Made by a program: the position numbers and the translations under genes
NCBI GenBank assembly: GCA_041163625.1
Contig: JBEARB010000253.1
Span: 11,034 to 75,033, forward strand
Direction: 5' to 3'
Length of the DNA: 64,000 nt
From: Pseudomonadota bacterium
GTDB lineage: Bacteria > Myxococcota_A > UBA9042
Shown: positions 1 to 62,338 of the stretch, piece after piece
How the letters are laid out: each line of letters begins with the position of its first letter
Position numbering within the stretch: position 1 is the stretch's first letter
Notes under the pieces: model-generated
The model's input: only the letters and a program-made list of their open reading frames with translations
Databases searched by the model: none
Told to the model about the DNA's origin: nothing

Positions 1-3000
1 GGCCGCGGCGCGGGTGGCGACGCGCTCGAGCTCGCACCACGCCTCGGCGCGGTGGCGGGCGCGGCTGCCGCGGTCGGCCGCCAATCGGTAGAGCGGGAGC
101 GCGGCACGGGCGCGGCCCTCGGCGACGGCGACGCGTGCCTCGTAGAGGACCGAGAGGCGGCCGGCGGGCGCGGTCTCTTCGAGCTGTTGCTGGGCGAAGC
201 GCAGATCACGCACCAGCGCGGCACGCTGCGAGGCCGTCAACGGCGCGGTCTTCTCGGCGACGGTCGGCGTGGCCGCAGGCGCCGTGCCGGGCAGCGCGGG
301 CGCGGGCGCCGACCCTGCCGCGGGCAACGCCGGTGCCTCGGCCGTCGAGGGTGGGGTGGCCGCATCTGCAGCAGCGCCGGCGGTCGCCTTCAGCGGGATG
401 CCGTCGAGCTGCACTGCCGGGGCGAGCTCGGACCAGGCCAGCTTGGCCAGGCGCTCGGCAGCGCTGACGTCGTTGGGGGCCAATTCCACCAGGCGGCGGA
501 GCATCGCACGCTGGCCGGCGGCGTCGAGGCTGCCGGACTTGCGGGCCAGCACCAATCGCGTCGCGAGCAGCGTGGCGTTGCGGGGGTCGATGGCGAGCGC
601 CGCGTCGAGATGGGCCTCGGCCTTGCCGCGGGTCTCCGCGTCGGTCGCGAGCGGGCGCGCCGCGGCGATGCGCTGCGCGACGCCGTCGCAGGTGCCGTCG
701 GATGCTGCGATCATCGCCTCGGCGAACGCGGCGGCCTTCTTCGACGCACCGCGCGCGGTGGAGGCCTCCATCGCGAGGTACCACGCGCTGCATTGAAGGA
801 CGCCGGGCGGGGCCGCGCCCGCCTTGGGCTCGACGCCGCGCACCGCCCCGAAGGCGCCGGCGTTGTCGCCTGCGTCGAAGGCCCGCTTCCAGCTCGAGAG
901 CGCCTTGTGTGCCGCGGCAGTCTCGGCCGACGCGGTCGCCGGCAGCTTCTGCGCCACGAGCCTGCCGATCTGCGCCGGCGTAGGCTGGAAATCGCGGTCG
1001 AACCGCTTCAGCTCCTTGCCCAGCCACGCGGCGAATTCGCCGTCGACCGCGGAAGCGCTCTTGCCGTAGACCTGCTGGATCAGCTGCTCGGTCGGCTTGC
1101 CGCTACGGTGCGCCGCGACGAGCTTGCGCAGCTTGTCAAAGCCGTAGGTCGCGTCGAGGAAGCGCACCAACCACATCGCCTGGTAGTAGGCACCGACGAT
1201 GTCTTGCATCGACCGCGCCTGCGAAAACGCGAGGTTGAAGGTCGCGATCGGGCTCAGCTGAGCGTCGCGGGCGCGATCGTAGAGCTGGCGCTCCATCACC
1301 ATGTGGTAGCGCGGGTCGAGCCACGCCGACTCCATCATCGCGAGGCCCTCGGTCAGCCAACGTGGCACGCGCCCCTCGGTCGCCTGAATGTGGAAGACGT
1401 GCGCCATCTCGTGGTGCAGGACCATCTTCCAGTTGAAGGGCGCCTCCATCGGCGAGCGGCTGGTGATCAGGTGGCCGAAGCAGACCGCGTGGGCACCGAG
1501 GCGCGGCAAGCCGACGGTCCGCACGCTGAATTGCTCGGTGGTCGGGAAGATCTCCACCCGCAGCGGCGGCTTGGCCTCCATCGCGTAGCGCTTGGCGAGG
1601 GTGGCGTAGCTCTCCTGCAAGAAGGGCAGCACCGTCCGCTCGAGCGCGCGGCGGTCGCGGCGGTGGACCCGCAATTCGACCGATTTTCCGGGCAGCAGGA
1701 CCATCTGTCGCAGGACGCCGTCGTAGAGCACGTTGAGCAGGTTGGCGGTGCGGACGTTGAAGGGATCGTTTCGGAAGGCCGTCTCGAGATGCTCGAGCGC
1801 CTTGACGTCGTCGGCCACCCGGGACCACGCCAAGCCCAGCTGCGCGTGCGCCTTCCACAGCTCCGGATCACGCTTGAGCGCGGCGAGCAGCTCGGCGCGG
1901 ACCTCGTCGTAGCGATGCGCCTGCTCGAGGTATTGCGCCGCCACCAGATGCGGGATGCCGTCGGTAGGGTCGAGCTTGTGGGCCGTGGCGAGGGTGCGCT
2001 TGGCGGTCTTGGCGTCGTCGAGCAGACGGGCCCACGCGTAGCGGACGGCGAGGTAGTCCGGTGCGGTCGATGCGATCGCGGCCGCCTTGTCGAGCCAGCT
2101 GCCGGCTTCCTCCATCGCCTCGTCGTGGATCGCGACCTCGGCGCGGGCAACCAGCGCGTGTGGCGCCCGGGGCGAGGTCTTCAGCAGCGCGTCGAGCCGC
2201 TTGCGGGCACGGGCGACGTCGTGGTCGCTGTCGAGATCGATGCGCGCCATGCCGACGATCGCGGACTCGTCGTGCGGGTCGAGTTTGAGCACCCGCGAGA
2301 ACGCGGTGTCGGCGTCGCGGAAATTGTACTTGTCCAGGAAGAGCCAGCCCCACACGCGCTCGACCTGCTTGCGCTCGGTCTTCTCGGCGACCGCTTCACT
2401 CGCGTCCGCGAGGACCTGGTTGGCGTCCTTGAAGAAGCCGTTGGCGGCGAGCGACTCCGCGGTCGCGACCATCTCGGCGACCGAGGTGATCTTGCCGGCA
2501 CCGTAGAGGTCGGCGATCGGATCCAAGATCTTGCGCGCCGCCATGTCCTGACCGACGGCGTAGAGCGCCCGGCCGTAGAGCACCCGCAGGGCCAGGTCCT
2601 GCTTGAAGCGAGCGACCGCCTTGGTCAGCAGCTTGACGGCCAGTCGCCGGTCGCCGTCCTCGAGCTCGAGCCGGGCGAGCACGGCGACGCAGGCGGCAGC
2701 GTCGCAGCCGGCGAGCACCTTGCGGGCATCGGCGCGGCGGCCGACGAAGCGCAGCGCTCGGCCGAAATCGGCCATCTCTTCGGGGCTGCGGTCCTTGACG
2801 TTCTCGAGCAGCGCGACGACGGCGTCGTAGCGACCGTGCAGCGCGTGGTCGGCCGCCTCGCGGGAGCGCGCAGTGTCGGTGCGGGGCGTACCGCCGAGCG
2901 TGCCGGCGGCGGCGGGACCGGCCGCGAACGCGAGCGCGGTCGCGACGGCGAGGGTAGCGAGCCGGGAGATCGAGCGGCTCAGAGGCCCTCGGCGATCTTC

Positions 3001-3003
3001 CAC
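1..3003 (-). CDS. Secreted TPR-repeat protein with an HExxH zinc-metalloprotease-like motif. The 3' end runs past the window start; the start codon is inferred as GTG near 3003.
   Basis: My own minus-strand translation (codon phase set by an ATG on the reverse complement of 1423..1425) reads through position 1 with no stop. It gives MEDRRGPLSRSISRLATLAVATALAFAAGPAAAG (signal-peptide-like), then many TPR-like helices and MVLHHEMAHVFH (HExxH) at ~1390-1425. This frame is missing from the supplied ORF track because no stop falls inside the window. The plus-strand ORF 52..3225 is a GC-rich antisense artefact. Confidence 0.55.
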   Translation of the reverse strand, partial: MEDRRGPLSRSISRLATLAVATALAFAAGPAAAGTLGGTPRTDTARSREAADHALHGRYDAVVALLENVKDRSPEEMADFGRALRFVGRRADARKVLAGCDAAACVAVLARLELEDGDRRLAVKLLTKAVARFKQDLALRVLYGRALYAVGQDMAARKILDPIADLYGAGKITSVAEMVATAESLAANGFFKDANQVLADASEAVAEKTERKQVERVWGWLFLDKYNFRDADTAFSRVLKLDPHDESAIVGMARIDLDSDHDVARARKRLDALLKTSPRAPHALVARAEVAIHDEAMEEAGSWLDKAAAIASTAPDYLAVRYAWARLLDDAKTAKRTLATAHKLDPTDGIPHLVAAQYLEQAHRYDEVRAELLAALKRDPELWKAHAQLGLAWSRVADDVKALEHLETAFRNDPFNVRTANLLNVLYDGVLRQMVLLPGKSVELRVHRRDRRALERTVLPFLQESYATLAKRYAMEAKPPLRVEIFPTTEQFSVRTVGLPRLGAHAVCFGHLITSRSPMEAPFNWKMVLHHEMAHVFHIQATEGRVPRWLTEGLAMMESAWLDPRYHMVMERQLYDRARDAQLSPIATFNLAFSQARSMQDIVGAYYQAMWLVRFLDATYGFDKLRKLVAAHRSGKPTEQLIQQVYGKSASAVDGEFAAWLGKELKRFDRDFQPTPAQIGRLVAQKLPATASAETAAAHKALSSWKRAFDAGDNAGAFGAVRGVEPKAGAAPPGVLQCSAWYLAMEASTARGASKKAAAFAEAMIAASDGTCDGVAQRIAAARPLATDAETRGKAEAHLDAALAIDPRNATLLATRLVLARKSGSLDAAGQRAMLRRLVELAPNDVSAAERLAKLAWSELAPAVQLDGIPLKATAGAAADAATPPSTAEAPALPAAGSAPAPALPGTAPAATPTVAEKTAPLTASQRAALVRDLRFAQQQLEETAPAGRLSVLYEARVAVAEGRARAALPLYRLAADRGSRARHRAEAWCELERVATRAAA

Positions 3004-3506
3004 GCCCCGTCCTCCCGGAGCAACTTCATCTGCGCGAAGTCGTTCCACATCTTGTACGACTCGCGGCCGCCTTCGGTGAGCAGCGCGCGCCCGAAATACT
3101 CGTATTGCGCGAGGGCGTTGTCGCCGTCAACCTCGATCGCGAGCAGCTTGATGCGGAACTGCACGCGCTTGACGTTCTCCCGCAGCTTCGGGAGCACGTC
3201 GGCCTGCAGGCGGTCGATGCCGTAGTCGTCCTTGTCGGTGTCGGTGGTGCCGCCGTTCTCGTAGTAGCGCTTGCTGATCAGCTTGCGCAGCGACTCGACG
3301 TTGCGGTCCTCGATCGCGCGGTGGTAGGCCACCAGGACGTTGTAGATCTCGCGGTTCTCGTCGGTCGCCGGGACCTTCTTGCCGACGTCGAGGTAGCCCG
3401 GACCGCAACCGGTGAGCAGGCCGGCCAGCAGCAACGTGCCGACGAGCGCGCGCGTGCCCGCGAAGGGCTGCGCGGCGCGGCGAGGGGTCATCGAACGAAG
3501 CATCAT
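2979..3506 (-). CDS. Small lipoprotein, NTF2-like/SnoaL-like fold (DUF4440-like).
   Basis: C-terminal 175 aa of track ORF 2979..4418(-): MMLRSMTPRRAAQPFAGTRALVGTLLLAGLLTGCGPG is a signal peptide with a lipobox. The rest (…YHRAIEDRNVESL…YEYFGRALL…) is typical of the NTF2-like superfamily. The start ATGATG lies at 3501..3506. Confidence 0.6.
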   Translation of the reverse strand: MMLRSMTPRRAAQPFAGTRALVGTLLLAGLLTGCGPGYLDVGKKVPATDENREIYNVLVAYHRAIEDRNVESLRKLISKRYYENGGTTDTDKDDYGIDRLQADVLPKLRENVKRVQFRIKLLAIEVDGDNALAQYEYFGRALLTEGGRESYKMWNDFAQMKLLREDGAWKIAEGL

Positions 3507-3637
3507 CTCGGCTCCCGGTTGGCTGGGCCCGTGGCCCTCGCGGTGGCGACCACGCCCCGCGTTGTCGTCGTTGCCGCGCGCGCCGTCAACTCTACAGCCA
3601 ACATCGCGGCGTGGCGACGCATTCCCCGCCCGCTCGA

Positions 3638-4387
3638 TCACGGCGGCGTGGTGCCCGGCGCGTGCGTCGGATTGGCGCGGCGTGCCCCTTCGTCCAGGTC
3701 CAGCTCGACCAGTCGATAGGGCGCGACGTCGAGGTGCAGGTGGTCTTCGTGGCCCGGATAGCCGGGCCCGAGCACGACGCGGAAGATCTGCCGCGCGGCC
3801 ACGAGCCGGCGGCCGAGGTCGTGCAGAAACGCGCGGTGCCGGGCGTCTGCGGGGCGATCGCTGCGCCAAGCGCCGCGAATTCGCACCTGGAACGCCCGAC
3901 GCAGCGGCGCCGGCAGCTTGGCCCGCTCGGAGCGTGGCGCGGGGCCGAAGTCGAAACCGGCGACGTCGATGCCGTTGGCCAGGCCGTGCTCCGAGAGCAG
4001 CGTCGGGTAGAGCCGGATGCGCCGGCAGTTGTAGGTCCCGATGTGGCGGATCTGCTTGGGCGCCCGTCCGTAGTGCTCGCGCGCGACTTCGGCGACCAGC
4101 TGCTCGAAGGCGCGCAGATGGGCGACGAAGGGCTCGGCGACCAAGACCGGGCTGTGGTAGCGCACGACGTCGCCGCGGTAGCGCACACGCGGGGTGCGCG
4201 GGCAGCGCGCCGGCCCCTTGGCCGGCATCTCCCGCAGCAAGCTGTCGAGCGGATAGCCACCCGGCCCGAGGTCGTACAGGCCGGTCTCGGGGTCGGGTGT
4301 AGGGGGAGCGGCCATGACGGGCCCGGCAGCGAAGGAGGCCGCCGTCAAGCCCGCGAGGCAGGTCCGAGCCCATCGCTCCGTTTGCAT
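3638..4387 (-). CDS. Secreted extensin-like C-terminal domain protein (COG3921 type).
   Basis: Internal ATG of track ORF 3638..4597(-). MQTERWARTCLAGLTAASFAAGPVMA is a signal peptide. The motifs LSEHGLANGIDVAGFDFG and GHEDHLHLDV are typical of bacterial extensin-family proteins. Confidence 0.6.
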   Translation of the reverse strand: MQTERWARTCLAGLTAASFAAGPVMAAPPTPDPETGLYDLGPGGYPLDSLLREMPAKGPARCPRTPRVRYRGDVVRYHSPVLVAEPFVAHLRAFEQLVAEVAREHYGRAPKQIRHIGTYNCRRIRLYPTLLSEHGLANGIDVAGFDFGPAPRSERAKLPAPLRRAFQVRIRGAWRSDRPADARHRAFLHDLGRRLVAARQIFRVVLGPGYPGHEDHLHLDVAPYRLVELDLDEGARRANPTHAPGTTPP

Positions 4388-4551
4388 CGTCACTCCATCG
4401 GCTTGCGCTCGGAGCCATCGCTGGCAGCGACGCACGAACCAGTCGAACCGTCTCCGCTCAATCGATGCAAGTCTCGTCGATGGCGCGCTATTCCATGCGA
4501 AGCGCCGATTTCTCGATGTTCGAGAGTGGCTGTGCGGGGCCGGTCGAATGC

Positions 4552-4587
4552 AAAAATGCCGAGGGGCCGGAAGAACCGGCCCCTCGG
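4552..4587 (-). terminator. Rho-independent terminator downstream of etfA (minus strand).
   Basis: Perfect 12-bp stem CCGAGGGGCCGG / CCGGCCCCTCGG with a 5-nt loop, at 4559..4587. It is followed on the minus strand by a TTTTT run (A-run on the plus strand, 4552..4556), 20 nt past the etfA stop. Confidence 0.7.
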
Positions 4588-4607
4588 ACGAAGACACGTC
4601 GGGAAGA

Positions 4608-5585
4608 CTAGCCGCGGGCGGCGAGCTTCTCGGCCAGCTCGGGGATCGCCGAGAAGGCGTCGGCCTTCAGCGAGTAATCCGCGATCTTGTGGATCGGCTC
4701 GTCGTCGCGGGTGTTGATCGCGACGATGACCTTGCTGTTCTTCATGCCGGCGAGGTGCTGAATGGCACCCGAGATGGCGACGGCGACGTAGAGCTGCGGC
4801 GCGACCACCTTGCCGGTCTGACCGATCTGGTAGTCGTTGGGCGCGTAGCCGTCGTCGACCGCCGCGCGGCTCGCGCCGATGGCGGCGCCCAGGGCGTCGG
4901 CCAGCGGCTCCATCACCTGCGAGAAGCCCTCGGCCGACTTCAGGCCGCGGCCACCGGCGACGACGACATCGGCCTCGTCCAGGCTCGGCCGATCCGAAGC
5001 GGTCGCGTCGAAGCTGACGAAGCGCGTGCGCGCGGCAGCGGCAGCCGGGTCGGCGGCGAACGCCTCGATGGCCGAGCTACCACCGCTGGCGGCGGCTGCG
5101 TCGAAGGCCGAGCCACGGGCGGTGACGCACCAGACGTCGGTGTCGATGACGACGTCGGCGAGCAGCGCGCCGGCCCACATCGGGCGACGGAAGCCGGGGC
5201 CCTCGCTGGTGTCGACGACCGCGACGACGTCCGACGCCATGCCGGCGCCCAGGCGGGCGGCGACGCGGGGCAGGATGTCCTTGCCGGTGGTCGAAGCGCT
5301 CATGGCGACGACGTCGGCGTCGGCAGCCTGCGCGATGTCGGCGATGACCTTGCCCCAGGTCGGGGCGAGGGGGTACGCGAGGTCGGCGTGATCGGCGACG
5401 TGGATGGTCTCGGCACCGTAGCCGGTCAGCGCGGCGGCGATGTCACCGACCCCGTGGCCGAGGACGGCGATGTCGATCGTGGCGCCCTTCTTGGCGGCCA
5501 GATCGCGGGCCATCTGCAGCGTCGTCAGGGTCGCCTTGCGCACCGTACCGTTGCCGTGCTCGGCAACGACGAGAATCTTGCTCAT
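4608..5585 (-). CDS. etfA: Electron transfer flavoprotein alpha subunit.
   Basis: 325 aa, MSKILVVAEHGNG…; the FAD-binding C-terminal region (…VAPQLYVAVAISGAIQHLAGMK…) is diagnostic of EtfA. Confidence 0.9.
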   Translation of the reverse strand: MSKILVVAEHGNGTVRKATLTTLQMARDLAAKKGATIDIAVLGHGVGDIAAALTGYGAETIHVADHADLAYPLAPTWGKVIADIAQAADADVVAMSASTTGKDILPRVAARLGAGMASDVVAVVDTSEGPGFRRPMWAGALLADVVIDTDVWCVTARGSAFDAAAASGGSSAIEAFAADPAAAAARTRFVSFDATASDRPSLDEADVVVAGGRGLKSAEGFSQVMEPLADALGAAIGASRAAVDDGYAPNDYQIGQTGKVVAPQLYVAVAISGAIQHLAGMKNSKVIVAINTRDDEPIHKIADYSLKADAFSAIPELAEKLAARG

Positions 5586-5615
5586 GTCGTGCTCCTGTAG
5601 CGTGCGCGGGCGCGC

Positions 5616-6371
5616 TTAGATGACGCGGGCCTCGGTGGCCAGCTTGGCGATCAGCTCGTCGACGTCGGCGACGGCGACACCAGCCGAACGACCGGCGGGC
5701 TCGTGCATCGCGACGACGCGGACCTTCGGGTCGAGATCGCCGATGTCGAGATCGTCGGGCTCGTACTCGTCCATCTCCTTCTTCTTGGCCTTCATGATGC
5801 CCGCGAGGCTGGCATAGCGCGGATCGTTCAGGCGCAGGTCGGCCGAGACGATGCAGGGCATGCCGATCGCGAGGGTCTCGAGACCGCCGTCGACCTCGCG
5901 GGTGACGATCGCTTCGTTGCCCTCGAGCTTGATGTCCGAGGCGAACGTGGCCTGCGGCCAGCCGAGCATCTCGGCGAGCAGCTGCGCGACCTGGTTGCTG
6001 TCGCCGTCGACGGCCTGCTTGCCGAGCAGGACGAGCTCGGGCTCCTCCTTCTCGATCACGGCCTTGAGGATGCGGGCGATGCCGTCCGAGTCGAGCTCGG
6101 CTTCTTCGGCCTCCACCCAGATGCCACGGTCGATGCCGCGGGCGAGCGCTCCCTGACGGATGAAGCGCTGCACCTCTTCGTCACCGATGCCGATCGCGAC
6201 GGTCTCGACGTCGTCGCCGGCCTCGGCGAGCTGGAGCGCCGCCTCGATCGCGTTCTCGCAGAACGGGTTGAGGATGAACTCGACGTCGTCGTCGATCCAG
6301 TTGCCGTCGTCGTTGATCACGAGCTTGGCGTTCGGATCGGTGACGCGCTTGGCGGTCACGAGGATCTTCAT
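5616..6371 (-). CDS. etfB: Electron transfer flavoprotein beta subunit.
   Basis: MKILVTAKRVTDPNAKL… is typical of EtfB. Start chosen at the internal ATG 6371 with GGAG 7 nt upstream. The gene sits directly upstream of etfA in the usual etfB-etfA order. Confidence 0.9.
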   Translation of the reverse strand: MKILVTAKRVTDPNAKLVINDDGNWIDDDVEFILNPFCENAIEAALQLAEAGDDVETVAIGIGDEEVQRFIRQGALARGIDRGIWVEAEEAELDSDGIARILKAVIEKEEPELVLLGKQAVDGDSNQVAQLLAEMLGWPQATFASDIKLEGNEAIVTREVDGGLETLAIGMPCIVSADLRLNDPRYASLAGIMKAKKKEMDEYEPDDLDIGDLDPKVRVVAMHEPAGRSAGVAVADVDELIAKLATEARVI

Positions 6372-6483
6372 GCAGCGCTCCCATAGCAAGGAAGGTGAGG
6401 CGGTCGTGCCGAGGAGGGGCGCGACCGGCCGGGAGTAAAGCCATCACGACGCACCGTGTCAATGACGGCGGTCGCGCGTTGGG

Positions 6484-7674
6484 CTACTGGCAGGTCTTCT
6501 TGTCCTTGTCGCACGTCAGGCCCGCGCAGCAATCGGAGGACGCGCCACAGGCCTTGTCCTTGGCATAGCAGGCGGTGCACTCGCCGCCAATCTGCCCCAT
6601 CTTCGGCCGCAGCGTGTAGTCGGGAGGGACGAGCTTTCCGTTGGACTCTTCGGACACGATGTAGCGCCAGTCGGCCGAATCGGTGGCCTTGTAGGCGCTC
6701 ACGCTGGCCTCCCAGGGCTTGCCGTCGTCCTGCACGAAGTCGAGCTTGCCGGCCGAGCGCAGGCGCGGCGTGAAGATCTGCTCGACCGCGGAGTAGCAGG
6801 TCTTGGTATCGGGGTTGCAGACGGTACCGGGCGGCAAGCGCGGATTGCCGCCGCTGTCGGCGTCGGTCGCGTACGAGATCGCGCACTTTTCGGCGACGCA
6901 CTTGGCGTTGGCGGTGCCGAGCGCCTTGGCGCAGTCCTCGTCCTTGCTGCACGGCGCGTCGAGGTCGAAGCGCTGGAACGCAATCCCGTCACAGGCCACG
7001 CTCGGAGCTGCGTCGTACTTCAGGTTCGCCTTCTTGACGGTCGCCGCCTTCTCGGGCGGACAGGCGATCTCCTTCATCTGCGCGTCGAGGCAGATGACGA
7101 GCGTCTGCAGCGAGGCCGTCTCGTTTTCGTAGCCGTCCGTGCCCTCGTGCCAGCCATCCTTGACCTCGAGCGTCACCTTGTAGTGGGAGTTGCGGTCGAT
7201 GAAGTCGGCCTGGAACTCTGCCTTGGTGTAGGAGCTCTTCCACTTGAAGGCCTGCTCGTAGGCAGTACAGCTCGGCTTGTCGGCACCGCCCGCCTTGGTC
7301 TCGTCGTCGCATTGGGTCTTGAGCGCGAGCAGGCGCGCCGTGTCCAGGCCGCGGCAATGCGGGAGCGGCAATCCAGCCGGACAATCGTCGAAGAGCTGCT
7401 TGAACCACTCCACCTGGGTCCCCGTGTCGGGAATCGTCTTTTCCGGTGTGCACGAGAGGCCGGCGAACAGCGAGTCGTAGGATTTTCCGGCCGACAGCGC
7501 CTCGAAGTCGTCCTTGCCGACGTCGCCGTAGAGGCGGAGAGCTTCGAAGTTCTCGACATCGAAGGGCATCAACATCAGGTTGAGGGACGTCAGCCGCGAG
7601 AGTTGACGCAGGTACGGGATCGTCACGAACACCTTCTCCGAGTAGTCGAGCGTCTCTCGATCCAACGTCCGCAT
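6484..7674 (-). CDS. Cys-rich hypothetical protein with a C-terminal knottin-like Cys spacing.
   Basis: Track ORF 6484..7791(-); internal ATG 7674 (MRTLDRETLDY…) preferred. The codon usage looks coding. The C-terminus CTACYAKDKACGASSDCCAGLTCDKDKKTC has spacing C-x6-C-x5-CC-x4-C-x6-C. No signal peptide is seen. Confidence 0.5.
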   Translation of the reverse strand: MRTLDRETLDYSEKVFVTIPYLRQLSRLTSLNLMLMPFDVENFEALRLYGDVGKDDFEALSAGKSYDSLFAGLSCTPEKTIPDTGTQVEWFKQLFDDCPAGLPLPHCRGLDTARLLALKTQCDDETKAGGADKPSCTAYEQAFKWKSSYTKAEFQADFIDRNSHYKVTLEVKDGWHEGTDGYENETASLQTLVICLDAQMKEIACPPEKAATVKKANLKYDAAPSVACDGIAFQRFDLDAPCSKDEDCAKALGTANAKCVAEKCAISYATDADSGGNPRLPPGTVCNPDTKTCYSAVEQIFTPRLRSAGKLDFVQDDGKPWEASVSAYKATDSADWRYIVSEESNGKLVPPDYTLRPKMGQIGGECTACYAKDKACGASSDCCAGLTCDKDKKTCQ

Positions 7675-7892
7675 GGTGTGACCGCAGAACTGGCCTGGCG
7701 TGCTTCGTAGACGACGGGCCGTGCAAAACGCCCGTCGCCGAGACAGATCTGGCACCTCGGCGCGAAACACCTGTTTCGTGATGAGACGCAAGCGCGTTCG
7801 ACAAAATACTTACACTAAAGACCCAGTGCCATTCTGTGCTCGTCGCGAACGTATCGTCATGAAGCAGCGCCCGGTGCGACGCCGGACCGGGA
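7675..7892 (-). promoter_or_regulatory. AT-rich intergenic region; likely promoter for the Cys-rich gene.
   Basis: A local GC drop (…acaaaatacttacactaaagacccagtgccattctgtg…) lies between two minus-strand genes. Confidence 0.3.
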
Positions 7893-10475
7893 TCAGTCGT
7901 TTCGGAACCGCAGCCGCGATCGTCCGAGCAGCGAAGCGTCGAGCCGCGAGGCGCTCACTTCGTTGGCGAGCGGGGCCACATCGGCCTCCGGGAGTGAGCG
8001 ACGACGCATCCGATCGATGAGCGACTGCGCCTCCCGGAAGTTGCCGGCCTTCACGAGGGCCTTGACGCCGATCCGGTACGCCGCCACGTGCTTGGGCTGG
8101 TAGCCCAGGGCGCGTCGGGCGGCGACGTAGGCCTCGTCGTAGGCGCGCGCCTTGAACTGCGCCCGAGCCAACCGCTGCCAATACTCGGCCTGCACATTGG
8201 GCCCCTTGCGGAAGCGCGGGTAGACGCTGCGGATGTAGGCGACTGCTTGATTCGGCTCCAGGGCCTCCAACGCCCCCTCGATCGACCAGATGCAGGAAGT
8301 CAGGTCCTCCGGGTCTTGCTGGCAGACGTCCGCGTACAGGCTGTAGGATTGGTGATGTTTCTTCTGGAATCGCGCAGACATGCCCAGCAGGCGTACGCCG
8401 GCGAGATGCACCGTCGGATCGCCCAGGAGACCTCCGGCGATCAGCGCGGCTTGGGTGAACGCCTGACGCCGAACGAACTGCGCGCCGACGCTCTCTTCGA
8501 TCGCGAAGTGACGACCGGGGTGGGCCGCGCTGAGTTTCTGCGAGAGCGTGAACACGAACATGGGATGGCTTGCGGCGAGCCATCGTCCCACAGCGCCGTT
8601 GACCGTCGACTCGCGCAGCAGCACGCGCTCGATGGTCCGTCGACCAGCCTCGTCGCCGGCGAGCGCACGGATCAACCGCTCGGCCAAGTCGTCCGGACGG
8701 TCGAGGACGGCGAGCGTGGGGTCGGCCGCGTCGCCCCCGGATCGGTGCAGGGAGACGGCGAGGACGAAATTTGCGTGCCGCGACAGGGGCTTCAATGCCA
8801 CCGCCCGGCGCAGCGCCGGCTGGGCCCGCGCGTCGTCGCCCGCCTCGTAGCGGGCGCGACCGAGGCGATACCAGGCATGGTGCGACGCCGCGAATCGCTC
8901 GGACACCAGCCGCTCGAGCGCGTCGGCGTCTCGGCCTCGCATCGCGACGGGGATGTCGAGCTCGCGCGCCTCCCACGTCATCGCCACCGCTCCGCCCGCG
9001 AGCGCGAGCGCCAAGCCAGCCGCTCCGAGCGCGACGGTGCGACTCGGTCGGCGCGGGAGCGGCCACCAGCGCGAAGGCCAGGAGTCGGGTCGGAGCTGCT
9101 CGAGCAGGGTGGCTGCGGCCAGCAGAACGTACAGGCCGGCCGGCAGCTCCAGCGAAAAATCGGCGAAGTCGTGGACCAGCAGGCCAACGATCGCCAACGT
9201 GGCACCGTGGAAGACGCCGTTGTTGCGCCAGGTCCGCAACGGCACGACGAGGACGCGCAGCAGCAGGAGCACGAAGAGGATGGTGAAGGGCAGCCCCTGG
9301 GAGACGATGCGGTCGAGAACGAAATTCTCGACGTACTCGTAGCGCACCTCTTCGAACGGCGGCGTCATCATGACGGAGACCGGCAGCGAACCGGTGCCCT
9401 GGCCGAGCGCCCAACCGTCCCAGAGGTGCGCGCTCAGCTCCGACATGATCGCGAGCTTGCCGTGACCACTCTGCAAGTCGGCCAGCGGCTCGAAGCGCGA
9501 GCGCGGCAGGAACTCCTGCTTCAGGTTCGGCAGGGCCACGATCGACAGCACACAGAGCACCGAAAAGATCTGCAAGAGCAAGCGCACGCGGGCTTGCCGG
9601 TCGAGCGTCTCTTCTTTGACGCGCAGGCTGCTTCGTGGACGCCGGCCGTGCAGCTTGGCCAGGGCCAGGATCAACAACGAGCCGAGCACCCCGCCACGTG
9701 ACGGCACGAACGCGATGGTCAGCCCGAAGAGCAAGACGGCAAAGGTCTGCACCCGCCGGACTGCCGGATCGGTGACCCGATGGTGGTGCCAGAACGCCAA
9801 CATGATGCCCAAGCCAGCCGTCAGGAGCGCCGAGACGTGGTTGGCGTTGACCGGCGCCAAATGACGCAGCAGGCCGCGCAATTCCTCGCCCAAGCCCACC
9901 GTCAGGGGCAATCGCGCCAACAGCCAAATCGCCCCCGCCGCCAGCGTGAGCATCGCCAGCCCACGCAGCGAATGCGCGGCGGCCGAAGCATCCCGCCGCG
10001 AGAACGGCAGCGCCGACGCAGCCAACGCCGTGCCGGAGGCGACCAGATAGACGGCGGACGCGTACGCCGCCTCCCCCGGATGCACCGCCAGCGGCAAGAA
10101 CGACGGAGGCGCCCTCCCGAGCGCTGCCGCAGCGCCATCGGCGACCGTCAACGCGTTGGCGTGCAACAGCCCGATCAATCCCCGCGGTAGGGGCACCAAC
10201 GCAACGAGCGAGAACACGCCCATCAACAGCCAGAGCCAGGCGAGCGGGTTGGCCCGGGCGCTGCGACCTGCACCGGTCACGAGCGTCGCCACCCACGTGA
10301 CGACCCCGAGCCCCCAAAGCAGCGCCAGCGTCGGCGTGTAGACGCCGCCGGTCCAGAAGATGGCGACGACGACCGCTGCGGCGCAGGCCGCGAAGGCGAC
10401 CCGAGCAGCCGCCCGCTGTACGGCGGTCGGTCCCTCGGCGCTGCCTTCGGGGGTCCAGGCGTCCGATGGCGGCAT
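7893..10475 (-). CDS. O-antigen ligase (Wzy_C)-like polytopic membrane protein with a C-terminal TPR domain.
   Basis: 860 aa with about 10 hydrophobic helices, followed by a soluble C-terminal region of TPR-like helices. This architecture is common in myxobacteria. Confidence 0.65.
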   Translation of the reverse strand: MPPSDAWTPEGSAEGPTAVQRAAARVAFAACAAAVVVAIFWTGGVYTPTLALLWGLGVVTWVATLVTGAGRSARANPLAWLWLLMGVFSLVALVPLPRGLIGLLHANALTVADGAAAALGRAPPSFLPLAVHPGEAAYASAVYLVASGTALAASALPFSRRDASAAAHSLRGLAMLTLAAGAIWLLARLPLTVGLGEELRGLLRHLAPVNANHVSALLTAGLGIMLAFWHHHRVTDPAVRRVQTFAVLLFGLTIAFVPSRGGVLGSLLILALAKLHGRRPRSSLRVKEETLDRQARVRLLLQIFSVLCVLSIVALPNLKQEFLPRSRFEPLADLQSGHGKLAIMSELSAHLWDGWALGQGTGSLPVSVMMTPPFEEVRYEYVENFVLDRIVSQGLPFTILFVLLLLRVLVVPLRTWRNNGVFHGATLAIVGLLVHDFADFSLELPAGLYVLLAAATLLEQLRPDSWPSRWWPLPRRPSRTVALGAAGLALALAGGAVAMTWEARELDIPVAMRGRDADALERLVSERFAASHHAWYRLGRARYEAGDDARAQPALRRAVALKPLSRHANFVLAVSLHRSGGDAADPTLAVLDRPDDLAERLIRALAGDEAGRRTIERVLLRESTVNGAVGRWLAASHPMFVFTLSQKLSAAHPGRHFAIEESVGAQFVRRQAFTQAALIAGGLLGDPTVHLAGVRLLGMSARFQKKHHQSYSLYADVCQQDPEDLTSCIWSIEGALEALEPNQAVAYIRSVYPRFRKGPNVQAEYWQRLARAQFKARAYDEAYVAARRALGYQPKHVAAYRIGVKALVKAGNFREAQSLIDRMRRRSLPEADVAPLANEVSASRLDASLLGRSRLRFRND

Positions 10476-10484
10476 GCGAAGGGC

Positions 10485-11129: not shown

Positions 11130-11202
11130 CGTCGAGCTCCAATCGGCAGCCCCCGCGGTCGCGGGAGCCTTGGGTTGTGCAAACCGCAGCCGACGATCAC
11201 GG

Positions 11203-12504
11203 CTACGGCAGGAATCCGAGCTTCCACGCCGCCGCAGCGCCGCCGAGCAACACGACGACCGCAGCGATCGCGATCCACTTGCCGACGCCGCCACCGCCGG
11301 AGGCCGACTCGCCCCGCACTTCGGGCAAGGTCTCGGGCGCGTCCAAGCGCTCGGCGAGTGGAACGGGTGCGGCGGGCGCGTCGCGGTCCGAGGCCAGATC
11401 TTCGAGCGGGAGATCGGCCAACTTGCCGAGCAGATCACCGATCGGGAGCATCGCACCGCCGCGCGTACCCAGGTCCGTGGGGCCGAGCGGCCGCTGGCCG
11501 ATATGCGGATCGACGCGGCCGGCATGCGCCGCTTCTTCGAACTCCGCACGCAGCACGCTGATCACGTCGAAGGGCACCTCGCCTTCGCCGCCGGCGTCGA
11601 GCCCGCGCATCCACTCGGACATGTCCGTCGCGGTCACACGCAGGTTGTGCTTGAAGAGGAACCCTGCGATCGCCTGCTCGAAGGCGCGCGCGGTCTGGTA
11701 GCGGCGCTTGGGGTTGCGAGCCAACGCCTTGAGCACGATCCGGTCGAGCTCGTCGTCGAGCTCGCTGCGCAAACGCGACGGCTTGTCGACGTCGCCCTTG
11801 CGGACCAACTCGACCGTCTCCATGTCGGTCTTGCCGGCATAGAGCTTCCGCCCGCACAGCATCTCCCAGAGCATGATGCCGGCCGCGTAGACGTCCGCGC
11901 GCAGGTCGACCGGCTTGCCGTCGACGACCTCGGGGCTGAGGTACGCAAACTTGCCCTTGATCACGCCCGCGTCGGTGTGGGTGGCGTGGCTCGCGGCCTT
12001 GGCCAGACCGAAGTCGGTCAGCTTCACCTCACCCTGCTTGGAGATCAGGACGTTGGGCGGGGATACGTCGCGGTGAACGATGCCGAGCGGCTTGTTGTCC
12101 GGACCTTCTTTCTCGTGCGCGTAGGCGAGACCGCGGCAGGTCTCCATGATGATGTAGCAGGCCAAGGGCACCGGGAACGGCTGACCCGAATCGACCACCC
12201 GCTGCATCAACCGGCGCAGGTTCGCGCCGTCGATCAGCTCCATCACCACGAAATACGTGTCGTCTGCTTTGCCGATATCGAAAATCTGAACGATATTCGC
12301 GTGCGTCAGCTGCATCGAGAGCCGCGCCTCGTCCAGGAACATGGAGACGAACTTGGCGTCGGTGCACATCGACGGCAGGATGCGCTTGATCGCGACCGTG
12401 CGTGCGAAGCCGTCGATCGACACGGCCTCACCACGGTAGATCTCAGCCATGCCGCCGGCGTCGATCTTCTCGATGATCCTGTAGCGCTGATGGACGGACG
12501 CCAT
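11203..12504 (-). CDS. Ser/Thr protein kinase with a C-terminal membrane anchor.
   Basis: [18 protein letters not shown] (glycine loop), [16 protein letters not shown] and DFGLAK kinase motifs. C-terminal [19 protein letters not shown] transmembrane segment. Start taken at ATG 12504 (MASVHQRYR…). Confidence 0.8.
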
Positions 12505-15054: not shown

Positions 15055-16466
15055 CGGTCGGCACTTCGCTGCTGCGAGCGCCCTGGCTCTGGGACGGCGC
15101 GATCTTGCACCGCGACGCGGCGCTCGCGCTCGAGGGCGGACGGGTCCGCTCGCTGCACCTCGGCCGGGACGCACTCGACGTCTGGGGCCGAACACCGGCG
15201 CGGCGCCGCCACGAGTTGCCGCGCCACCTGCTGATGCCGGGCCTGTGCGACGCACACAGCCACGCCTTCCAGCGCATCTTCCGCGGGCATGTGCAGCATC
15301 GCGCGGCGGGCGACTCGTTCTGGGCCTGGCGCCACGCGATGTACGCGGCGGCGACGCGGCTCGGCCCAGGCGGCGTGTACGCCGTGGCGTGCCAAGCCTT
15401 CCTGGAGCTGCTGCGCGCGGGCGTCAGCGCGGTCGGCGAGTTCCACTACCTGCACCACGCACCGAACGGTCAGCCCTACGAGCGGCCAGATCTGCTCGCC
15501 GAGCAGGTCATCGCGGCAGCCCGACGCGTCGGCTTGCGGATCACCTTGCTGCGCGTCGCCTACGCTGCCGCTGGCATCGAGCGCGACGGACGCCCGACAC
15601 CGGCGCTACCCGAGCAACGCCGCTTCCTCGCGCGCTCGCCCGACGACGTGCTCGCGGCCTGCGCGCGCCTGCAGGCCCACCACGCCGCGGACCCAGGGGT
15701 CGTGGTCGGCCTCGCGCCGCATTCGGTGCGCGCGGTGCCGCGGAGCTGGCTGCCCGAGTTCGCGGGCTTCTCGGGCGTGGTGCACGCGCACGTGGCCGAG
15801 CAGCCGGCCGAAGTCCACGCCTGCCACGCCGCGTTCGGTCGCGGACCACTGCAGCTCTTCGCCGACGCCGGCCTGCTGCACGAGCGCTTCTCGGCGGTGC
15901 ACCTGACCCATCCCGAGCCCGGCGACGCAGCCCTGCTGCGGGCGAGCGGCGCGAGCGTCGTGGCCTGCCCATCGACCGAGCTCGACCTGGGCGACGGCTT
16001 CCTGCCGCCGGCGCTGCACACGGCCTGCCGCGTCGCGGTAGGCTCGGACTCCTACGCTGACGTCGACCCGCTCGGCGAGGCACGCGCGCTCGAAGGCCAC
16101 GCCCGCGCCGCACTGGGCCGACGCGTCGTGCTCGGCGACGGCAGCCCGGGCAGCCTCGCCGGCACCGTGCTCGACATGGCCTCGGCCCATGGCCACCGCG
16201 CCATCGGCCAGCCCGGCGGCCGCATCGTCGCCGGCGCTGTCGCCGACCTCTGCGCCGTCGACCTGGACCGCCCCGAAGCCGACGGGATGCCGCCGCTCGA
16301 GGCGGTCGCGCTGCGGGCCCGGCCGGAGTGGGTGAGCGATGTCTGGGTGCAGGGCGTGCGGCGATTGCGGGACGGGCGGCATCCGGACGAAGACGCCATT
16401 CGCGCCGCCTTTCGCGTCGTCTGCGCCGATCCCGCCTTGCCGGCTCACGACGACGCGCTGCATTGA
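15051..16466 (+). CDS. Amidohydrolase-superfamily protein, formimidoylglutamate deiminase (HutF)-like.
   Basis: MTVGTSLL…HLLMPGLCDAHSHAFQRIF (metal-binding HxH motif of HutF/guanine-deaminase-like amidohydrolases). ATGA overlap with the upstream gene. Confidence 0.6.
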   Translation: MTVGTSLLRAPWLWDGAILHRDAALALEGGRVRSLHLGRDALDVWGRTPARRRHELPRHLLMPGLCDAHSHAFQRIFRGHVQHRAAGDSFWAWRHAMYAAATRLGPGGVYAVACQAFLELLRAGVSAVGEFHYLHHAPNGQPYERPDLLAEQVIAAARRVGLRITLLRVAYAAAGIERDGRPTPALPEQRRFLARSPDDVLAACARLQAHHAADPGVVVGLAPHSVRAVPRSWLPEFAGFSGVVHAHVAEQPAEVHACHAAFGRGPLQLFADAGLLHERFSAVHLTHPEPGDAALLRASGASVVACPSTELDLGDGFLPPALHTACRVAVGSDSYADVDPLGEARALEGHARAALGRRVVLGDGSPGSLAGTVLDMASAHGHRAIGQPGGRIVAGAVADLCAVDLDRPEADGMPPLEAVALRARPEWVSDVWVQGVRRLRDGRHPDEDAIRAAFRVVCADPALPAHDDALH

Positions 16467-16559
16467 GCAACGAGTCCTCGGGCCCCTGAGCCGCCGCGAT
16501 GGACAGTGGCTGTTGGCCCGGATCTGCGCGATCCTCCGCCTAGACGGAGGATGCGATCC

Positions 16560-18529
16560 ATGTCCGAACGAGCTCACCATGGCCCGTGGTCGCGGGTCGC
16601 GGTAGACACGGCCGCCGACACGGCGACCACCGACGCCGCAGCCAGTGACACCGCGAGCGGCACCTGCAAGGTCGCCGCCGATTGCCCGACGCCGACCGAG
16701 CCCTGCCTCGCCGCCGCCTGCCAGCCGGGCGTCGGCTGCTTGACGGTCCAACTCCTCGACGGCGCCTACTGCGACCCGGGCGACGATTGCCTGCTCGGCG
16801 GCGTCTGCGCCGTCGGCGTCTGCAAGCCCGGCGCCCCCCGCGACTGCGACGACGGCCAAGCCTGCACCGCCGACGGCTGCACGGACGGCGCCTGCACCCA
16901 CACGCCCGCGCAAGGCACGCCGTGCGACGACGGCGAAGCCTGCACGAAGGGCGATTCGTGCCAAGACGGCGCCTGCACCGGCCCGGACAGCTGCGTGCTC
17001 GGCGTCTGCAAGGGCGCCGCGATCGCCTGCGACGACGGCAACCCCTGCACCGACGACGATTGCGCCGCCGGCAAGGGCTGCACGCACACGCCCAACGCCG
17101 CGCCGTGCAAGGTCGACGTGCCCTGCCAGCCCTTGGGCGTGTGCACCGCCGGTGCCTGCGTCGCGCTACCGGCGCCGCTCTGGCAGGCCACCGTCGACGG
17201 CAAGGACGCCGAGACGCCGCAAGCAGTCGCTGCCGGCGCGGACGGTTCGGCTTGGTTGGTCGGTCGTGCCGTGGCATCGTGCTCGCGTGGCCCTTCGCCG
17301 ACGCCAAGACGCAGGGCGCCGCCGCCCGCGTCGTCGTCCGCGACCCGTGGGGCAACGTCGACTGCGCCACCCAGGGTGCCTGCGCCGGCTAGACCCTGGC
17401 CGACTGCGACGACGGCAACCCGTGCACCTTCGACGGCTGCAGCACCGAGCTCGGCTGCACCCACCAGGTCCACGGCCTCGCCTGCGACGACGGCAACGCC
17501 TGCACCACCGGCGAGGCGTGCACGGGCGGCGTCTGCCAGGGCGGCAAGCTGCAGGGCTGCGACGACGGCAACGTCTGCACCGACGACGCTTGCAACCCGC
17601 AGGTCGGCTGCACCCACGCGGCGAACGCCGCCGCCTGCGATTCGGGCAACTGCACGGTCGGCGACAGCTGCGCGGCGGGTCTGTGCAAGACCACCGGCGC
17701 CTCGCGCTTCGGCACCACCTTCCACGGCCAAGCGGGCGAGGACACCCCCACCGGCGCGGACGTCACGCCCGACGGCGGCGCTGTGATGGTGGGCGCGACG
17801 TACACCAAGCCCGATTCGGACGGCCTGCTGCTCCGCGGCTACGGTGCCGACGCGCGACTGCTCGCGCTGGACGGCGATGGCGACGTGGTCTGGCACGTCG
17901 ACTTCCGGGGCCAGGCCAACAACACGCCCGACTACTTCAACTCCGTGGCGGCGATGCCCGACGGCGGTGCGCTCGGCGTCGGATACACCAGCAACCCGGG
18001 GATTCGGCAGGTCTACGTGGGTCGCGCGAGCTCGAATGGCAAGTCGCTGTGGTCGCGCACCTTCGGCGGGGCAGCCGACGATATCGGACGAGGTGTCACG
18101 GTCCTGGCAAGCGGAGCGTTCACCGTGGTGGCGAGCAGCCTCTCGACGCAACCGGGCAACGGGGACGTGCTCCTGCGCGGCATGGATCCGATGGGCAACA
18201 CGCTCTGGGAGCGCGTACACGGCCTGACGACCGAGGATGTGCCGGCTGCCTTGTTGCGCCGGGCCGACGGCAGCCTGCTCGTGCCGGCCAAGGGGACCAA
18301 GCCCGGCGCGGCCGCCGCAGACGTCGCGGTATGGACTTTCGACGCTTGGGGTTATGGCAGCTGCAAGGACGCCGGAGGATGCGCTGCCATGCCCGCGACC
18401 GGCTGCGACGACACCAACGCCTGTACGGCGGACATCTGCACGCCGACGGGCTGCAGCCACACACCACTCACCGAGGGCGCTCTGTGCAAGCTCGGCAAGA
18501 CGTGCAAGAAGGGTAGCTGCTCGAACTAG
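16560..18529 (+). pseudogene. Disrupted gene for a myxobacterial Cys-rich repeat protein (frameshift plus in-frame TAG).
   Basis: GGAGGA sits 9 nt before ATG 16560. Reading frame 0 is protein-like up to ~17270 (repeats CxDGxxCTxDxCxxGxCxHTP). The coding then continues in another frame from ~17276 (…IVLAWPFADAKTQGAAARVVVRDPWGNVDCATQGACAG) to a TAG at 17390..17392. It continues immediately after the TAG without a start codon (TLADCDDGNPCTFDGC… to 18529). See findings. Confidence 0.5.
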
Positions 18530-18546
18530 CAGCAACAGGAGTCGAG

Positions 18547-21500
18547 ATGACGACCACGCACCGGCGCCACGTGCAGCGCGCCCTCGCCGCGGGCTTTGCG
18601 CTCGCGATCCTCGCTCCTGCACTCGCCGCGGCCCAGGTGCCGTTCCAGCGGGCTCCGGCGGTCCCGGCGTCGCTGGAAGCCTACCGTGGCTGGGCGACGC
18701 ACGGCCTCGAGTCGCTCGGCTGCTCCTGGCTGCAGGACGACAAGATCTGCGTCTGGCCCGGCGCGTTGCACCTCGAGGTCGGTGAGCGGGGTGCTGAATT
18801 CGCGCTGGAGGTCTTCCTCGACCGCCCCAGCCGCGTCGCGCTGCCCGGCGACGCCAAGCGGTTCCCGCAGGACGTACAGGTCGCAGGCGCACCAGCCTTC
18901 GTCGCCCGCGACGAAAGCGGCCTGCCGCAGGTGCTGCTGCTCGCCGGCGTGCACAAGATCACCGGCCGCTTCCCGTACGCCGCGGCCCCCGAGACGCTGC
19001 CGGTACCGACCGCCGTCGGCCGGGTCACCCTGCGCCGCGGCGACGGCGCGGTCGTGCAGCCTCGCCGCGAGGAGGGCCAGGTCTGGCTCGGGCAGGAGGC
19101 GCGGACCGAGGAAGACGACGCCGACAGCCTGACGGTGCGGGTGTTCCGCCGGCTCGACGACGGCGTGCCGATGCGCCTGACCACGCGCCTGGAGGTCCAG
19201 GCCGCCGGTCGCGCCCGCGACGTCGACCTCGGTCGCCTGTTGCCCGACGGCGCACGACCCGTTGCGCTCGAGGGCGGGGGTCTGCCGGCCACGGTGGCGC
19301 AGGACGGCGGGCTGCGCCTGCACGTTCGACCGGGCAGCTTCCGCGTCGAGCTGCGCGCGGTGCTGCCGGACAATCCGCTGGCGGTCGGGGTGCCGGCGCA
19401 CGCCAGCGGCACCGGCATCGAAGAGAGCGAGGCCTGGGTCAGCTTCACCGACGAAGCGCTGCGCAGCGTGGAGCTCTCTGGGCTCACCGCGGTCGATCCG
19501 GCGCGCGCCGGCATCCCCGAGGACTGGCGCGGTGGCTCGTCGTTCCTGGCCCGTCCGGGCGAGACGCTGCAGCTCAAGGTCAGTCGCCGCGGCGAGGAGG
19601 AAGCGCTGCCGAATCGACTGCAGGTGCACCGCTCGCTCTGGCTCGATCTCGATGGCGGCGGATTCACCGCGCGTGACACGATCCGCGGCGATCTGCACCG
19701 CGACTGGCGCATCGACGCCCTCGGCGACGACGCCGGGCAGGAACTCGGGCGCGTCCACGACGGTTCGACCGGCAAGGACGCGCTGATCACGCGCAACCCC
19801 AAGACCGGCCACGACGGCGTCGAACTGCGCAGCGGCAAGGTGCAGTTGACTGCCGAATCGCGGCTGGGTCCGGCGACGACGATGCACGCGGTGGGCTGGG
19901 ATCTCGACGTGGCGCAGCTTCGGACCACGCTGCGCCTGCCGCCCGGCTGGACGCTGCTCGCCGCGCGTGGCGTCGACCGGGCTCCCGGCACCTGGATCGC
20001 CTCGTGGACCCTGCTCGACTTCTTCCTGGTGCTGATGGTCGCGGCGGCAGCGATGAAGCTGTTCGGTGCACCGGCGGGCCTACTCGCGCTGGCCGCGATG
20101 GTGCTCGGCCACGATCAACAGGACGCGCCGTCCTGGCTCTGGCTGCACCTACTCGCCGCCGCGGCACTGCTGCGCGTGCTGCCCGAAGGCTGGCCACGGC
20201 GCGTGGTGGTCTTCTGGCGCGCGGCGGCCGGCGTGCTGTTGCTGGTGGTCCTGGTGCCCTTCGCGATCGGGCAGATCCGACACGGAATCTATCCGCAGGT
20301 CAGCCGCCCCGGCGGCGGGACTGCGTTCGACATCGACAGCGGGTTCGGGGGAAACATCGATCTCGTCAACCGCGAAGCGCAGACCAAGTCTGGCGCCGAT
20401 GAGGCCGTGCCCGCCGCACCGGCCGAGGAGATGGTCCTCGAGGCCGAAGAGGGGGGCGGCGCCGACGCGCGGTACGAGCGCAAGCGCGCGGGCCGCTTGG
20501 CCAAGCCCGGCAAGCTCAAGAGCTACAGCAACCTGGCGCTGCAACAGCAGCAGACGCAGAGCTATCGCAACCTCGTCGACGTCGACCCCAAGGCGGTGGT
20601 GCAGACCGGCCCGGGTGTACCGGATTGGGGCTGGTCGAGCTGGAACCTCTCCTGGTCCGGCCCCGTGGATCGCGGCCACCAGGTCGAGTTGGTGCTGCTT
20701 TCGCCGCGGCTCAACCTGCTGCTGGCGCTGCTCCGCGTGGTGCTGATGGCGGCCCTGGGCATCGTGATGCTGGAGTTGCGTCGGCGGGCCGGAGGGATGC
20801 GGCAGTGGCTGCAGGCCCGCACCGGCCTGTTCGGTGGCGGCGCAGCGCTGCTCGCCGTCCTGACGGTCGGCGCCGCGGCCCTCGCACCGAACACCGCCCG
20901 CGCCGACTTGCCCCCGCCGCCTCCCCCGGCGAGCGCGGCGGTGACGCCGACGCCGTGGCCGCCCGAGACCGTGCTCGAGACGTTGCGCGAGCGCCTGCAG
21001 CAGGCCGAAGCGTGTGACGGGCCCTGCACCACGACCCCGGCGGCGACCCTGGAGCTCGAGGCCGGCGGCGCGCTGCGCTTCGTGGCAGAGGTCTTCGCCC
21101 TGCGCGCCGCGGGCTGGGCCTTGCCGACCGGAGCGCGGATCGACGAGGTGCGAATCGACGGCCAGCCGACCTCGGCGCTGCGTCGAGAGCGCGACGGCGT
21201 GGTCTGGGTGCGGATCCCCGCCGGCCGTCACCGGGTGGTGGCGAGCGGACAGCTGCCGGCGACCTCGGTCGTCACCTTGGCGCTGCACGACGCGAGTCGC
21301 CCGGCCAGGCTGACGGTGCAGGCGAAAGGCTGGCGCGTCGATGGCCTCGGCCCGGACGACGTGCCCGAGTCGAGCCTGCAGCTCGGCCGGATCGGCGAGG
21401 AGCGCGGCAGCCAAGCGGCCGATCCCCTGGCTGCGGCCGATTTGCCGGACTTCTTCGCGGTCGAGCGTCGCTTGCTGCTCGGGTTGCCGTGGACGATCGA

Positions 21501-24975: not shown

Positions 24976-25316
24976 CGTGAAGCCTCCGGACGCGTCGACG
25001 CCAACATCGACGGAGTGCCGCATGGGACAAGGCTGCGAAGTGTCGCGCCGCTCTCTGGGAGGGTCAAGTCGCCCCGGCCGAGGGGGGACGCCGAGCGGGG
25101 CCGCGACCGCGCCGTGCCTCACTCGGACGGCCGCATCCGCGTGATCCGCCATTGGCAGCTGGGGGCGCACATGATAGTCTTCCCGCAACGACGGAGGATC
25201 GTGTGCGCCTCCCCCCAACTCCGGGCGCACCGCGGTCTTGCCCGAAGGGGGCACCGGATCTCGCGTCCAACCCATCAGAACGATGGGTGGTCGGATCCGT
25301 CGTGGGAGAACGAACG

Positions 25317-60402: not shown

Positions 60403-60603
60403 GCGGCCTGCCGATGTTCGGTCTACCGCTCGGCATGATGCGTAGTCCGCGCAGTCACAGCGCCGGCACGAGATGTAGAGCGCGTCGTCGGAGGTCCGCC
60501 CGGCCACTGAAGTGGCGGGCTATCTTTGCGCCGTTCGCCCTCGCGGACGGCAACACAGGGCTCAACGTCAACCGCACGCGCTGTCAGTTTGTGGGAGGTC
60601 CGC

Positions 60604-62318: not shown

Positions 62319-62338
62319 CAGGGGCCATTGGGGGGCAC

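Follow-up and report, generated by a model that had tools for sequence, protein, structure and literature searches.

Positions 16560–18529 (+ strand) of the DNA analysed here, a stretch of 64,000 nt hereafter referred to as the window, hold a Cys-rich coding sequence that changes reading frame and contains an internal stop codon. This raises the question of whether the locus is a broken gene, an error of sequencing or assembly, a case of programmed recoding, or a remnant that retains some role. The original prediction, made from the sequence alone, was that a frameshift and a nonsense codon had split one gene, which had also lost an internal module. The results presented below indicate that the region is very probably a fixed pseudogene, what is left of a ~1780-codon gene whose Cys-rich product was secreted or lipid-anchored.

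Reading frames and intact orthologs

All reading frames of the 16560–18529 region were examined, and they were found to contain one Dicty_CTDC-repeat coding sequence, which runs in frame 0 up to position ~17270 and in frame 2 beyond it. Frame 0, beginning with the ATG at 16560, is Cys-rich and carries CxDGxxCTxDxC units as far as ...ADGSAWLVGRA/...QAVAAGADGSAWLVGRA (~17270), past which it becomes low-complexity text rich in P, A, R and S, ended by a stop codon at 17786. Frame 2 takes on a protein-like character at position ~17273 (GIVLAWPFADAKTQG.../GIVLAWPFADAKTQGAAARVVVRDPWGNVDCATQGACAG), is interrupted by a TAG codon at 17390–17392, and is then open (TLADCDDGNPCTFDGC...) until a second TAG at 18527–18529. 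The codon position richest in G+C changed from pos%3=2 to pos%3=1 between 17235 and 17280, and the G+C content at this richest (third) position, 0.8–1.0, was maintained across the TAG at 17390. The frame translations and this shift confirmed the frame switch that had been placed at ~17265–17280. The in-frame continuation without a start codon after TAG 17390 was also confirmed, the first ATG, GTG or TTG codons in frame 2 after the internal stop being GTG 17783 and ATG 17786. Both parts of the sequence matched the Pfam family PF00526 (Dicty_CTDC; repeats of ~24 residues) above the gathering cut-off of 27 bits, with scores of 30.5 bits (E=3.2e-7) for the 5′ part and 53.7 bits (E=1.7e-14) for the 3′ part after the TAG. 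The first beta-rich segment, which had been estimated at ~45 aa, spans ~45–50 residues, versus ~220 in the second, and the next gene begins at 18547, 17 nt after the final stop, as had been noted. All the positions given in the original prediction proved to be correct.

Protein searches with the fused translation were swamped by CTDC-repeat proteins, with no ortholog among the results, and the only matches to propeller 2 (see below) were a 247-aa fragment and remote relatives. Scans of JGI metagenome contigs with the N-terminus of the 1451-aa protein encoded by the next gene, or with the conserved C-terminal part of the remnant, yielded no closer relatives, only propeller proteins with 23–39% identity. 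However, when the 1451-aa protein was used to scan one genome per species, a related MAG was identified, HK-STAS-MYXO-50 (L003, JACKFC010000020.1), in which the ortholog is a single ORF of 1780 aa (2623..7965) ending 8 nt upstream of the ortholog of the 1451-aa protein gene. A second, more distant ortholog, also a single ORF (3608..8968, 1786 aa), is present in GCA_964586155.1 (L011, CAZPHC010000001.1). The gene order in L003 and L011 is that of the window: SpoIID, a small gene, an amidohydrolase, the CTDC gene and the gene of ~1450 aa. The orthologs begin with a signal peptide. An N-terminal Cys module comes next, then five 'GC..D.DC...DDGNLCNGT.FC' modules accompanied by CTDC units. Two 7-blade propellers follow, separated by further CTDC repeats, and a terminal CTDC unit closes the protein. 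The signal peptide of L011 ends in a classical lipobox (...AALAVLVGC, with LVGC), and that of L003 reads LTPLLLIAVAM...SHAC (...LTPLLLIAVAMGSHAC). PF00526 matched the ortholog with 57.7 bits over 7 stretches, and the ortholog, like the remnant, terminates with TAG.

The features of the locus, with the four deletions (Del1–Del4) described in the next section, are as follows.

16512–16559, + strand: conserved 5′ region with a Shine-Dalgarno sequence, aligning upstream of the ATG of the L003 ortholog
16560–17270, + strand: 5′ remnant in frame 0 (PF00526 match; alignment with L003), comprising the start codon, leader, N-terminal Cys module, CTDC repeats and the first strand of blade 1 of propeller 1
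16983–16997, + strand: Del1 junction, in frame (alignments to both orthologs)
17268–17280, + strand: Del2 junction, with the change from frame 0 to frame 2 (alignment with L003; anchor distances)
17273–17389, + strand: last blade of propeller 1 and linker, in frame 2 (73% amino acid identity to L003 residues ~1148–1184)
17390–17392, + strand: nonsense codon TAG in frame 2 (alignment to L003, L011, P0110 and P0115)
17393–18529, + strand: 3′ remnant in frame 2 (PF00526, alignment, AlphaFold2 and Foldseek), comprising CTDC repeats, the predicted four-blade rest of propeller 2, a terminal CTDC unit and the native stop TAG at 18527–18529
17546–17551, + strand: Del3 junction, in frame (alignments to both orthologs)
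17834–17839, + strand: Del4 junction, in frame and in blade register (alignments; pLDDT <50 at the junction)
18438, + strand: polymorphic site, TGC/TAC (five assemblies and both orthologs)
18530–18546, + strand: 17-nt spacer with AGGAG (18537–18541), 5 nt before the ATG of the next gene
18547–22902, + strand: intact gene for the 1451-aa protein (conserved; 86% amino acid identity to L003)

Lesions of the remnant and the predicted propeller fold

The translation of the remnant was aligned globally to the L003 ortholog, with 429 identities over 657 aligned positions (65%), and in a three-way alignment with L011. The remnant retains ~655 of the 1780 codons (~37%), in two frames and with an internal stop. 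L003 and the more distant L011 hold every one of the missing segments, and the deletions are therefore derived in the lineage of the remnant rather than being insertions in its relatives; the segments were not present elsewhere in the 64-kb window. Del1 removed ~564 codons of Cys-rich modules (L003 residues ~179–742) that both orthologs have, and its junction lies at TGC-GTG 16992–16997, a TGC-GTx codon pair being found at both L003 breakpoints. Del2 removed blades 1b to 6 of propeller 1, ~306 codons (L003 residues ~842–1147). The anchors flanking it are 35 nt apart in the remnant versus 951 nt in L003, corresponding to a net loss of 916 nt (916 mod 3 = 1, i.e., 3n+1). The frame change and the loss of propeller 1, of which the first strand of blade 1 and blade 7 are left, are thus due to one out-of-frame deletion. 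The TAG at 17390 aligns with AAG (Lys 1185) in L003 and with a lysine in L011 and in P0110 and P0115, two other Dicty_CTDC proteins. Downstream, Del3 (17548/17549) removed one 56-residue CTDC repeat pair, and Del4 (17836/17837) removed 161 codons, equivalent to three of the seven blades of propeller 2, leaving a hybrid blade that begins as blade 1 and ends as blade 4. Del1, Del3 and Del4 are all in frame.

The beta-rich half encoded by 17693–18526 was modelled with AlphaFold2 from six distant homologs (pLDDT 72.8, pTM 0.71), and the predicted structure contains 16 strands in four groups, corresponding to four blades, with confidence falling below 50 exactly at the Del4 junction. Nearly all of the top 50 Foldseek matches in the PDB were beta-propellers, and a few were entries describing only the protein. 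The best match was the CylK propeller (PDB 7roo; E=3.9e-10), with a TM-score of 0.65 when normalised by the query and 0.29 when normalised by the target, as the model spans only a fraction of each PDB target. Counting by eye gave seven blade motifs for each of the two L003 propellers and for P0110. The second beta-rich half is thus predicted to be the four-blade rest of a seven-blade propeller. Sequence profiles for such repeats remained below threshold (PQQ_2, PF13360: 18.3 bits against a cut-off of 27.6; delta-60 repeat, NCBIfam TIGR02608: 18.4 against 76.5), and sequence searches of the PDB with the ortholog propellers gave only marginal matches, to BamB (E=0.07) and designed propellers. 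We found only a passing mention of Dicty_CTDC in bacteria in the literature. The source MAG contains at least one intact CTDC paralog (RIT45_14, P0073).

The single uninterrupted ORFs of the orthologs support the view that one gene was split by a frameshift and a nonsense codon with internal module loss, and the comparison did not reveal two genuinely separate genes. The loss had been attributed to recombination or deletion between tandem modules; deletion is upheld, but recombination between the two tandem halves is not, as blade 1 is joined to blade 7 inside propeller 1. The second half had been described as intact, but three of its seven blades (161 aa) and a 56-aa repeat pair are missing. 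The ~564-codon deletion near 16992 had been overlooked, as had the signal-peptide loss. The original reading is supported, but it understated the damage.

Start region, strain variation and the downstream gene

The Shine-Dalgarno sequence of the remnant, GGAGG at 16546–16550, and its ATG are conserved with L003. A perfect 8-bp inverted repeat (16531–16538/16545–16552; ATCCTCCG ... CGGAGGAT) can pair with this Shine-Dalgarno sequence, and the hairpin is predicted to have an energy of −23.5 kcal/mol (z=−2.3). A similar pairing stem occurs in L003, and none in L011. Scans for promoters and terminators in 16300–18700 found nothing, which is expected at 72% G+C, and an Rfam search of the whole window gave no match. 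The ~100 nt after ATG 16560 are scrambled and 75 nt shorter than in the ortholog. We looked for a signal peptide, a hydrophobic core and a lipobox at the N-terminus of the remnant and found none, the best 11-residue Kyte-Doolittle score being 0.59, versus 2.46 in L003 and 2.60 in L011. A degraded signal peptide in another frame was also considered (PWPVVAGRG vs LAVLVGCG), but the resemblance is too short to be claimed.

Translation from ATG 16560 would yield 237 native residues, with no export signal, and a tail of 171 residues read out of frame, and nothing 3′ of 17392 could start before 17783, inside a blade. Since there is no export signal, the tail is out of frame and the rest has no start codon, a functional product of the remnant seems unlikely. 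A disulfide-rich extracytoplasmic protein would not be expected to work without its signal peptide, with four blades left of one propeller and the other missing.

The locus was also found in other assemblies, located through the identical 1451-aa neighbour on public contigs, which provided four contigs from four other samples: JGI 3300043420 (L001), SRR35180390 (L002), ENA ERZ27257200 (L009) and SRR19514067 (L010). These contigs align to the window without gaps and with 99.68–99.97% identity, differing by 2–29 SNPs each, and represent different strains. Two of the four extend upstream as far as the frameshift and the TAG, L001 (5 mismatches in 8387 nt, gap-free) and L009 (29 mismatches in 8981 nt, gap-free); they have an identical junction sequence at 17255–17290 and the same TAG at 17390, which excludes an error of one assembly; L002 and L010 share Del4. 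The broken frame that had been predicted is therefore genuine, and no intact frame was found. As the sampled strains share the lesions, these predate the divergence of the strains (0.03–0.3%). At position 18438, which falls within the last CTDC repeat, the window reads TGC, coding for the ancestral Cys that both orthologs share, whereas all four other assemblies have TAC (Tyr); this replacement in four of the five assemblies hints at present-day relaxation. At 18413, the window has ACC (Thr) and the four other assemblies GCC (Ala). The strain SNPs comprised 12 sites in the remnant (5N:7S) and 18 in the 1451-aa gene (4N:14S); both their density and their N:S ratio were greater in the remnant, but the counts are too small for significance.

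In pairwise comparisons with L003, the retained blocks had a dN/dS of 0.375, versus 0.165 in the 1451-aa gene. However, with L011 as the outgroup, single-step codon changes gave similar N:S ratios for the remnant branch (17:33) and the intact L003 branch (14:22; Fisher p=0.66), and all 54 cysteines conserved in both orthologs are kept in the remnant. The higher rate would thus be a property of the gene family rather than the result of long neutrality, and the inactivation appears to be recent, confined to a small final part of the branch. The retained blocks are unlike long-neutral DNA in their G+C at the richest codon position, their cysteines, their N:S ratio and their in-frame deletions, which is a counterpoint to the pseudogene reading; such signs of constraint would fit a recent inactivation, and residual function of some fragment would also fit.

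The downstream 1451-aa protein had no Pfam or NCBIfam match. It is 86% identical to its L003 ortholog (7974–12287) and 58% identical to a 1463-aa protein of L011 (9001–13392), and a search returned 114 homologs, mostly from Myxococcota MAGs (e.g., Sandaracinaceae and Polyangiaceae), in a family of ~1300–1600 aa. The gene's dN/dS suggests that it is under purifying selection. In L003 and L011, though not in L013 or L014, the family member comes after a CTDC/propeller lipoprotein gene. A polar effect of the broken gene on the 1451-aa gene had been put forward as possible; the latter is intact and conserved, and its translation need not depend on the remnant, since it has its own AGGAG 5 nt before the ATG. 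In L014 (GCA_947491025.1), a gene call of 2266 aa (19575–21541, − strand) matches both Amidohydro_1 and Dicty_CTDC, and the amidohydrolase and CTDC neighbours may be fused there or mis-called as one gene.

Elsewhere in the window, two large intact Cys-rich lipoprotein genes (25152–31763 and 31777–35550; ~2200 and 1257 aa) have lipobox-type N-termini and different Cys repeat patterns, and G+C drops to 0.64–0.65 there. An ORF of 547–702 aa on the − strand (23332–25440) has a very acidic, repetitive centre rich in E, A, L and V and an A/E-rich, coiled-coil-like C-terminus, and callers differ on its start (547 vs 563 aa). The 60000–64000 segment has a G+C content of ~0.595, versus ~0.70–0.74 elsewhere, loses third-position G+C periodicity from 61111 to 63811 and carries a 501-aa ORF (60813–62318) with no obvious relatives; its composition suggests that it may be a foreign island.

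Alternative explanations and comparison with known systems

Base-call errors, or the collapse of repeat modules in a metagenome assembly, might have broken a gene that is really intact, given that the gene is repetitive, that its source genome is metagenome-assembled and that the Del1 and Del3 junctions sit in repeat units. Such an artefact is nevertheless highly improbable. The window, L001 and L009 come from different samples and strains and share the junction and the TAG despite 5–29 SNPs, L002 and L010 also have Del4, the frameshift comes with a 916-nt loss and no homopolymer slip, the DNA identity between propeller blades is too low for collapse, and the TAG is a substitution. Programmed recoding, by a −1 frameshift near 17270 and the read-through or reassignment of TAG 17390, would instead join the two frames in one 655-residue protein, and the strong codon bias in both frames and the frame running on directly past the TAG are in its favour. 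However, there is no slippery heptamer (X XXY YYZ) in 17200–17300, the orthologs use a single frame and have a Lys codon at the position of the TAG, and TAG terminates 6 of the 15 well-supported genes in the window, including the remnant gene. The product would still have no signal peptide and only a fragment of one propeller, and we therefore consider recoding extremely improbable.

A residual role is less easily dismissed than these two explanations, but we still regard it as unlikely. The remnant could represent a tolerated or selected in-frame downsizing, carry the promoter and leader of the 1451-aa gene, or provide a fragment that is made, such as the 247-aa ORF from ATG 17786, which gene callers annotate as the product of RIT45_3127. 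The three in-frame deletions besides Del2, the lack of a nonsynonymous excess on the remnant branch, the 54 retained cysteines and the conserved 5′ region with its Shine-Dalgarno sequence and ATG are all consistent with such a role. However, a fragment from 17786 would begin inside a blade and have no export signal, a conserved Cys has been lost in most strains, in-register repeat deletions preserve the frame without selection, and recent inactivation explains the substitution data equally well. It is similarly doubtful that the gene died in stages, with a selected in-frame remodelling in blade register from 1780 to ~960 codons preceding a recent knock-out, and that it persists as a 2-kb leader whose start region for transcription and translation feeds the 1451-aa gene.

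We therefore favour a fixed pseudogene, for which syntenic intact homologs, disabling lesions and lesions shared across assemblies were all found. At least six lesions would have accumulated in its lineage: the loss of the signal peptide, Del1 (~564 codons), Del2 (3n+1), the AAG-to-TAG change, Del3 and Del4. The window corresponds to an NCBI MAG with the locus tags RIT45_3127 and RIT45_3128. In this public annotation, the only product at the remnant is RIT45_3127, a 247-aa 'hypothetical protein', and the fragments called in other assemblies are of 37, 247, 326 and 347 aa, the last of these cut by a contig end. These calls are pieces of one dead gene, and the practical value of the result lies in annotation. 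The locus is a well-polarised example of a modular repeat/propeller gene decaying mostly by large deletions with its codon bias still intact, and suggests that the 1451-aa gene can do without an intact copy of its usual upstream partner, but the remnant raises no new biological question.

The closest relatives of the remnant, the L003 and L011 orthologs, share its locus, module order and C-terminus, with 65% amino acid identity between the retained blocks and L003, but they have one open frame, a signal peptide and two complete 7-blade propellers. P0110 (1021 aa) and P0115 (1135 aa), from Myxococcota MAGs, have CxDxNxCTxDxC repeats, as in the remnant, and, like the remnant gene, a propeller followed by DPWGN..C....C..K.LADC and a terminal CTDC unit. 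Unlike the ortholog, they have one propeller rather than two, are only 29–42% identical and are not syntenic. The CylK propeller resembles the beta-rich segment in its four-stranded antiparallel blades, but identity is ~20% and the remnant covers only part of a propeller, and a shared function is not implied. Genes with a programmed −1 frameshift, such as dnaX and the IS3-family transposases, also have one protein-like sequence over two overlapping frames; the remnant differs from them in that it has no slippery site, its orthologs are unshifted and the shift coincides with the 916-nt deletion. Mechanistically, there is nothing new here: the remnant is a bacterial pseudogene of the ordinary kind, from an uncharacterised family of Myxococcota surface proteins. 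It has the disabling lesions relative to intact orthologs, the fixation and the truncated length of other such pseudogenes, and stands out from them only in the number of its large deletions and its still-intact codon bias.
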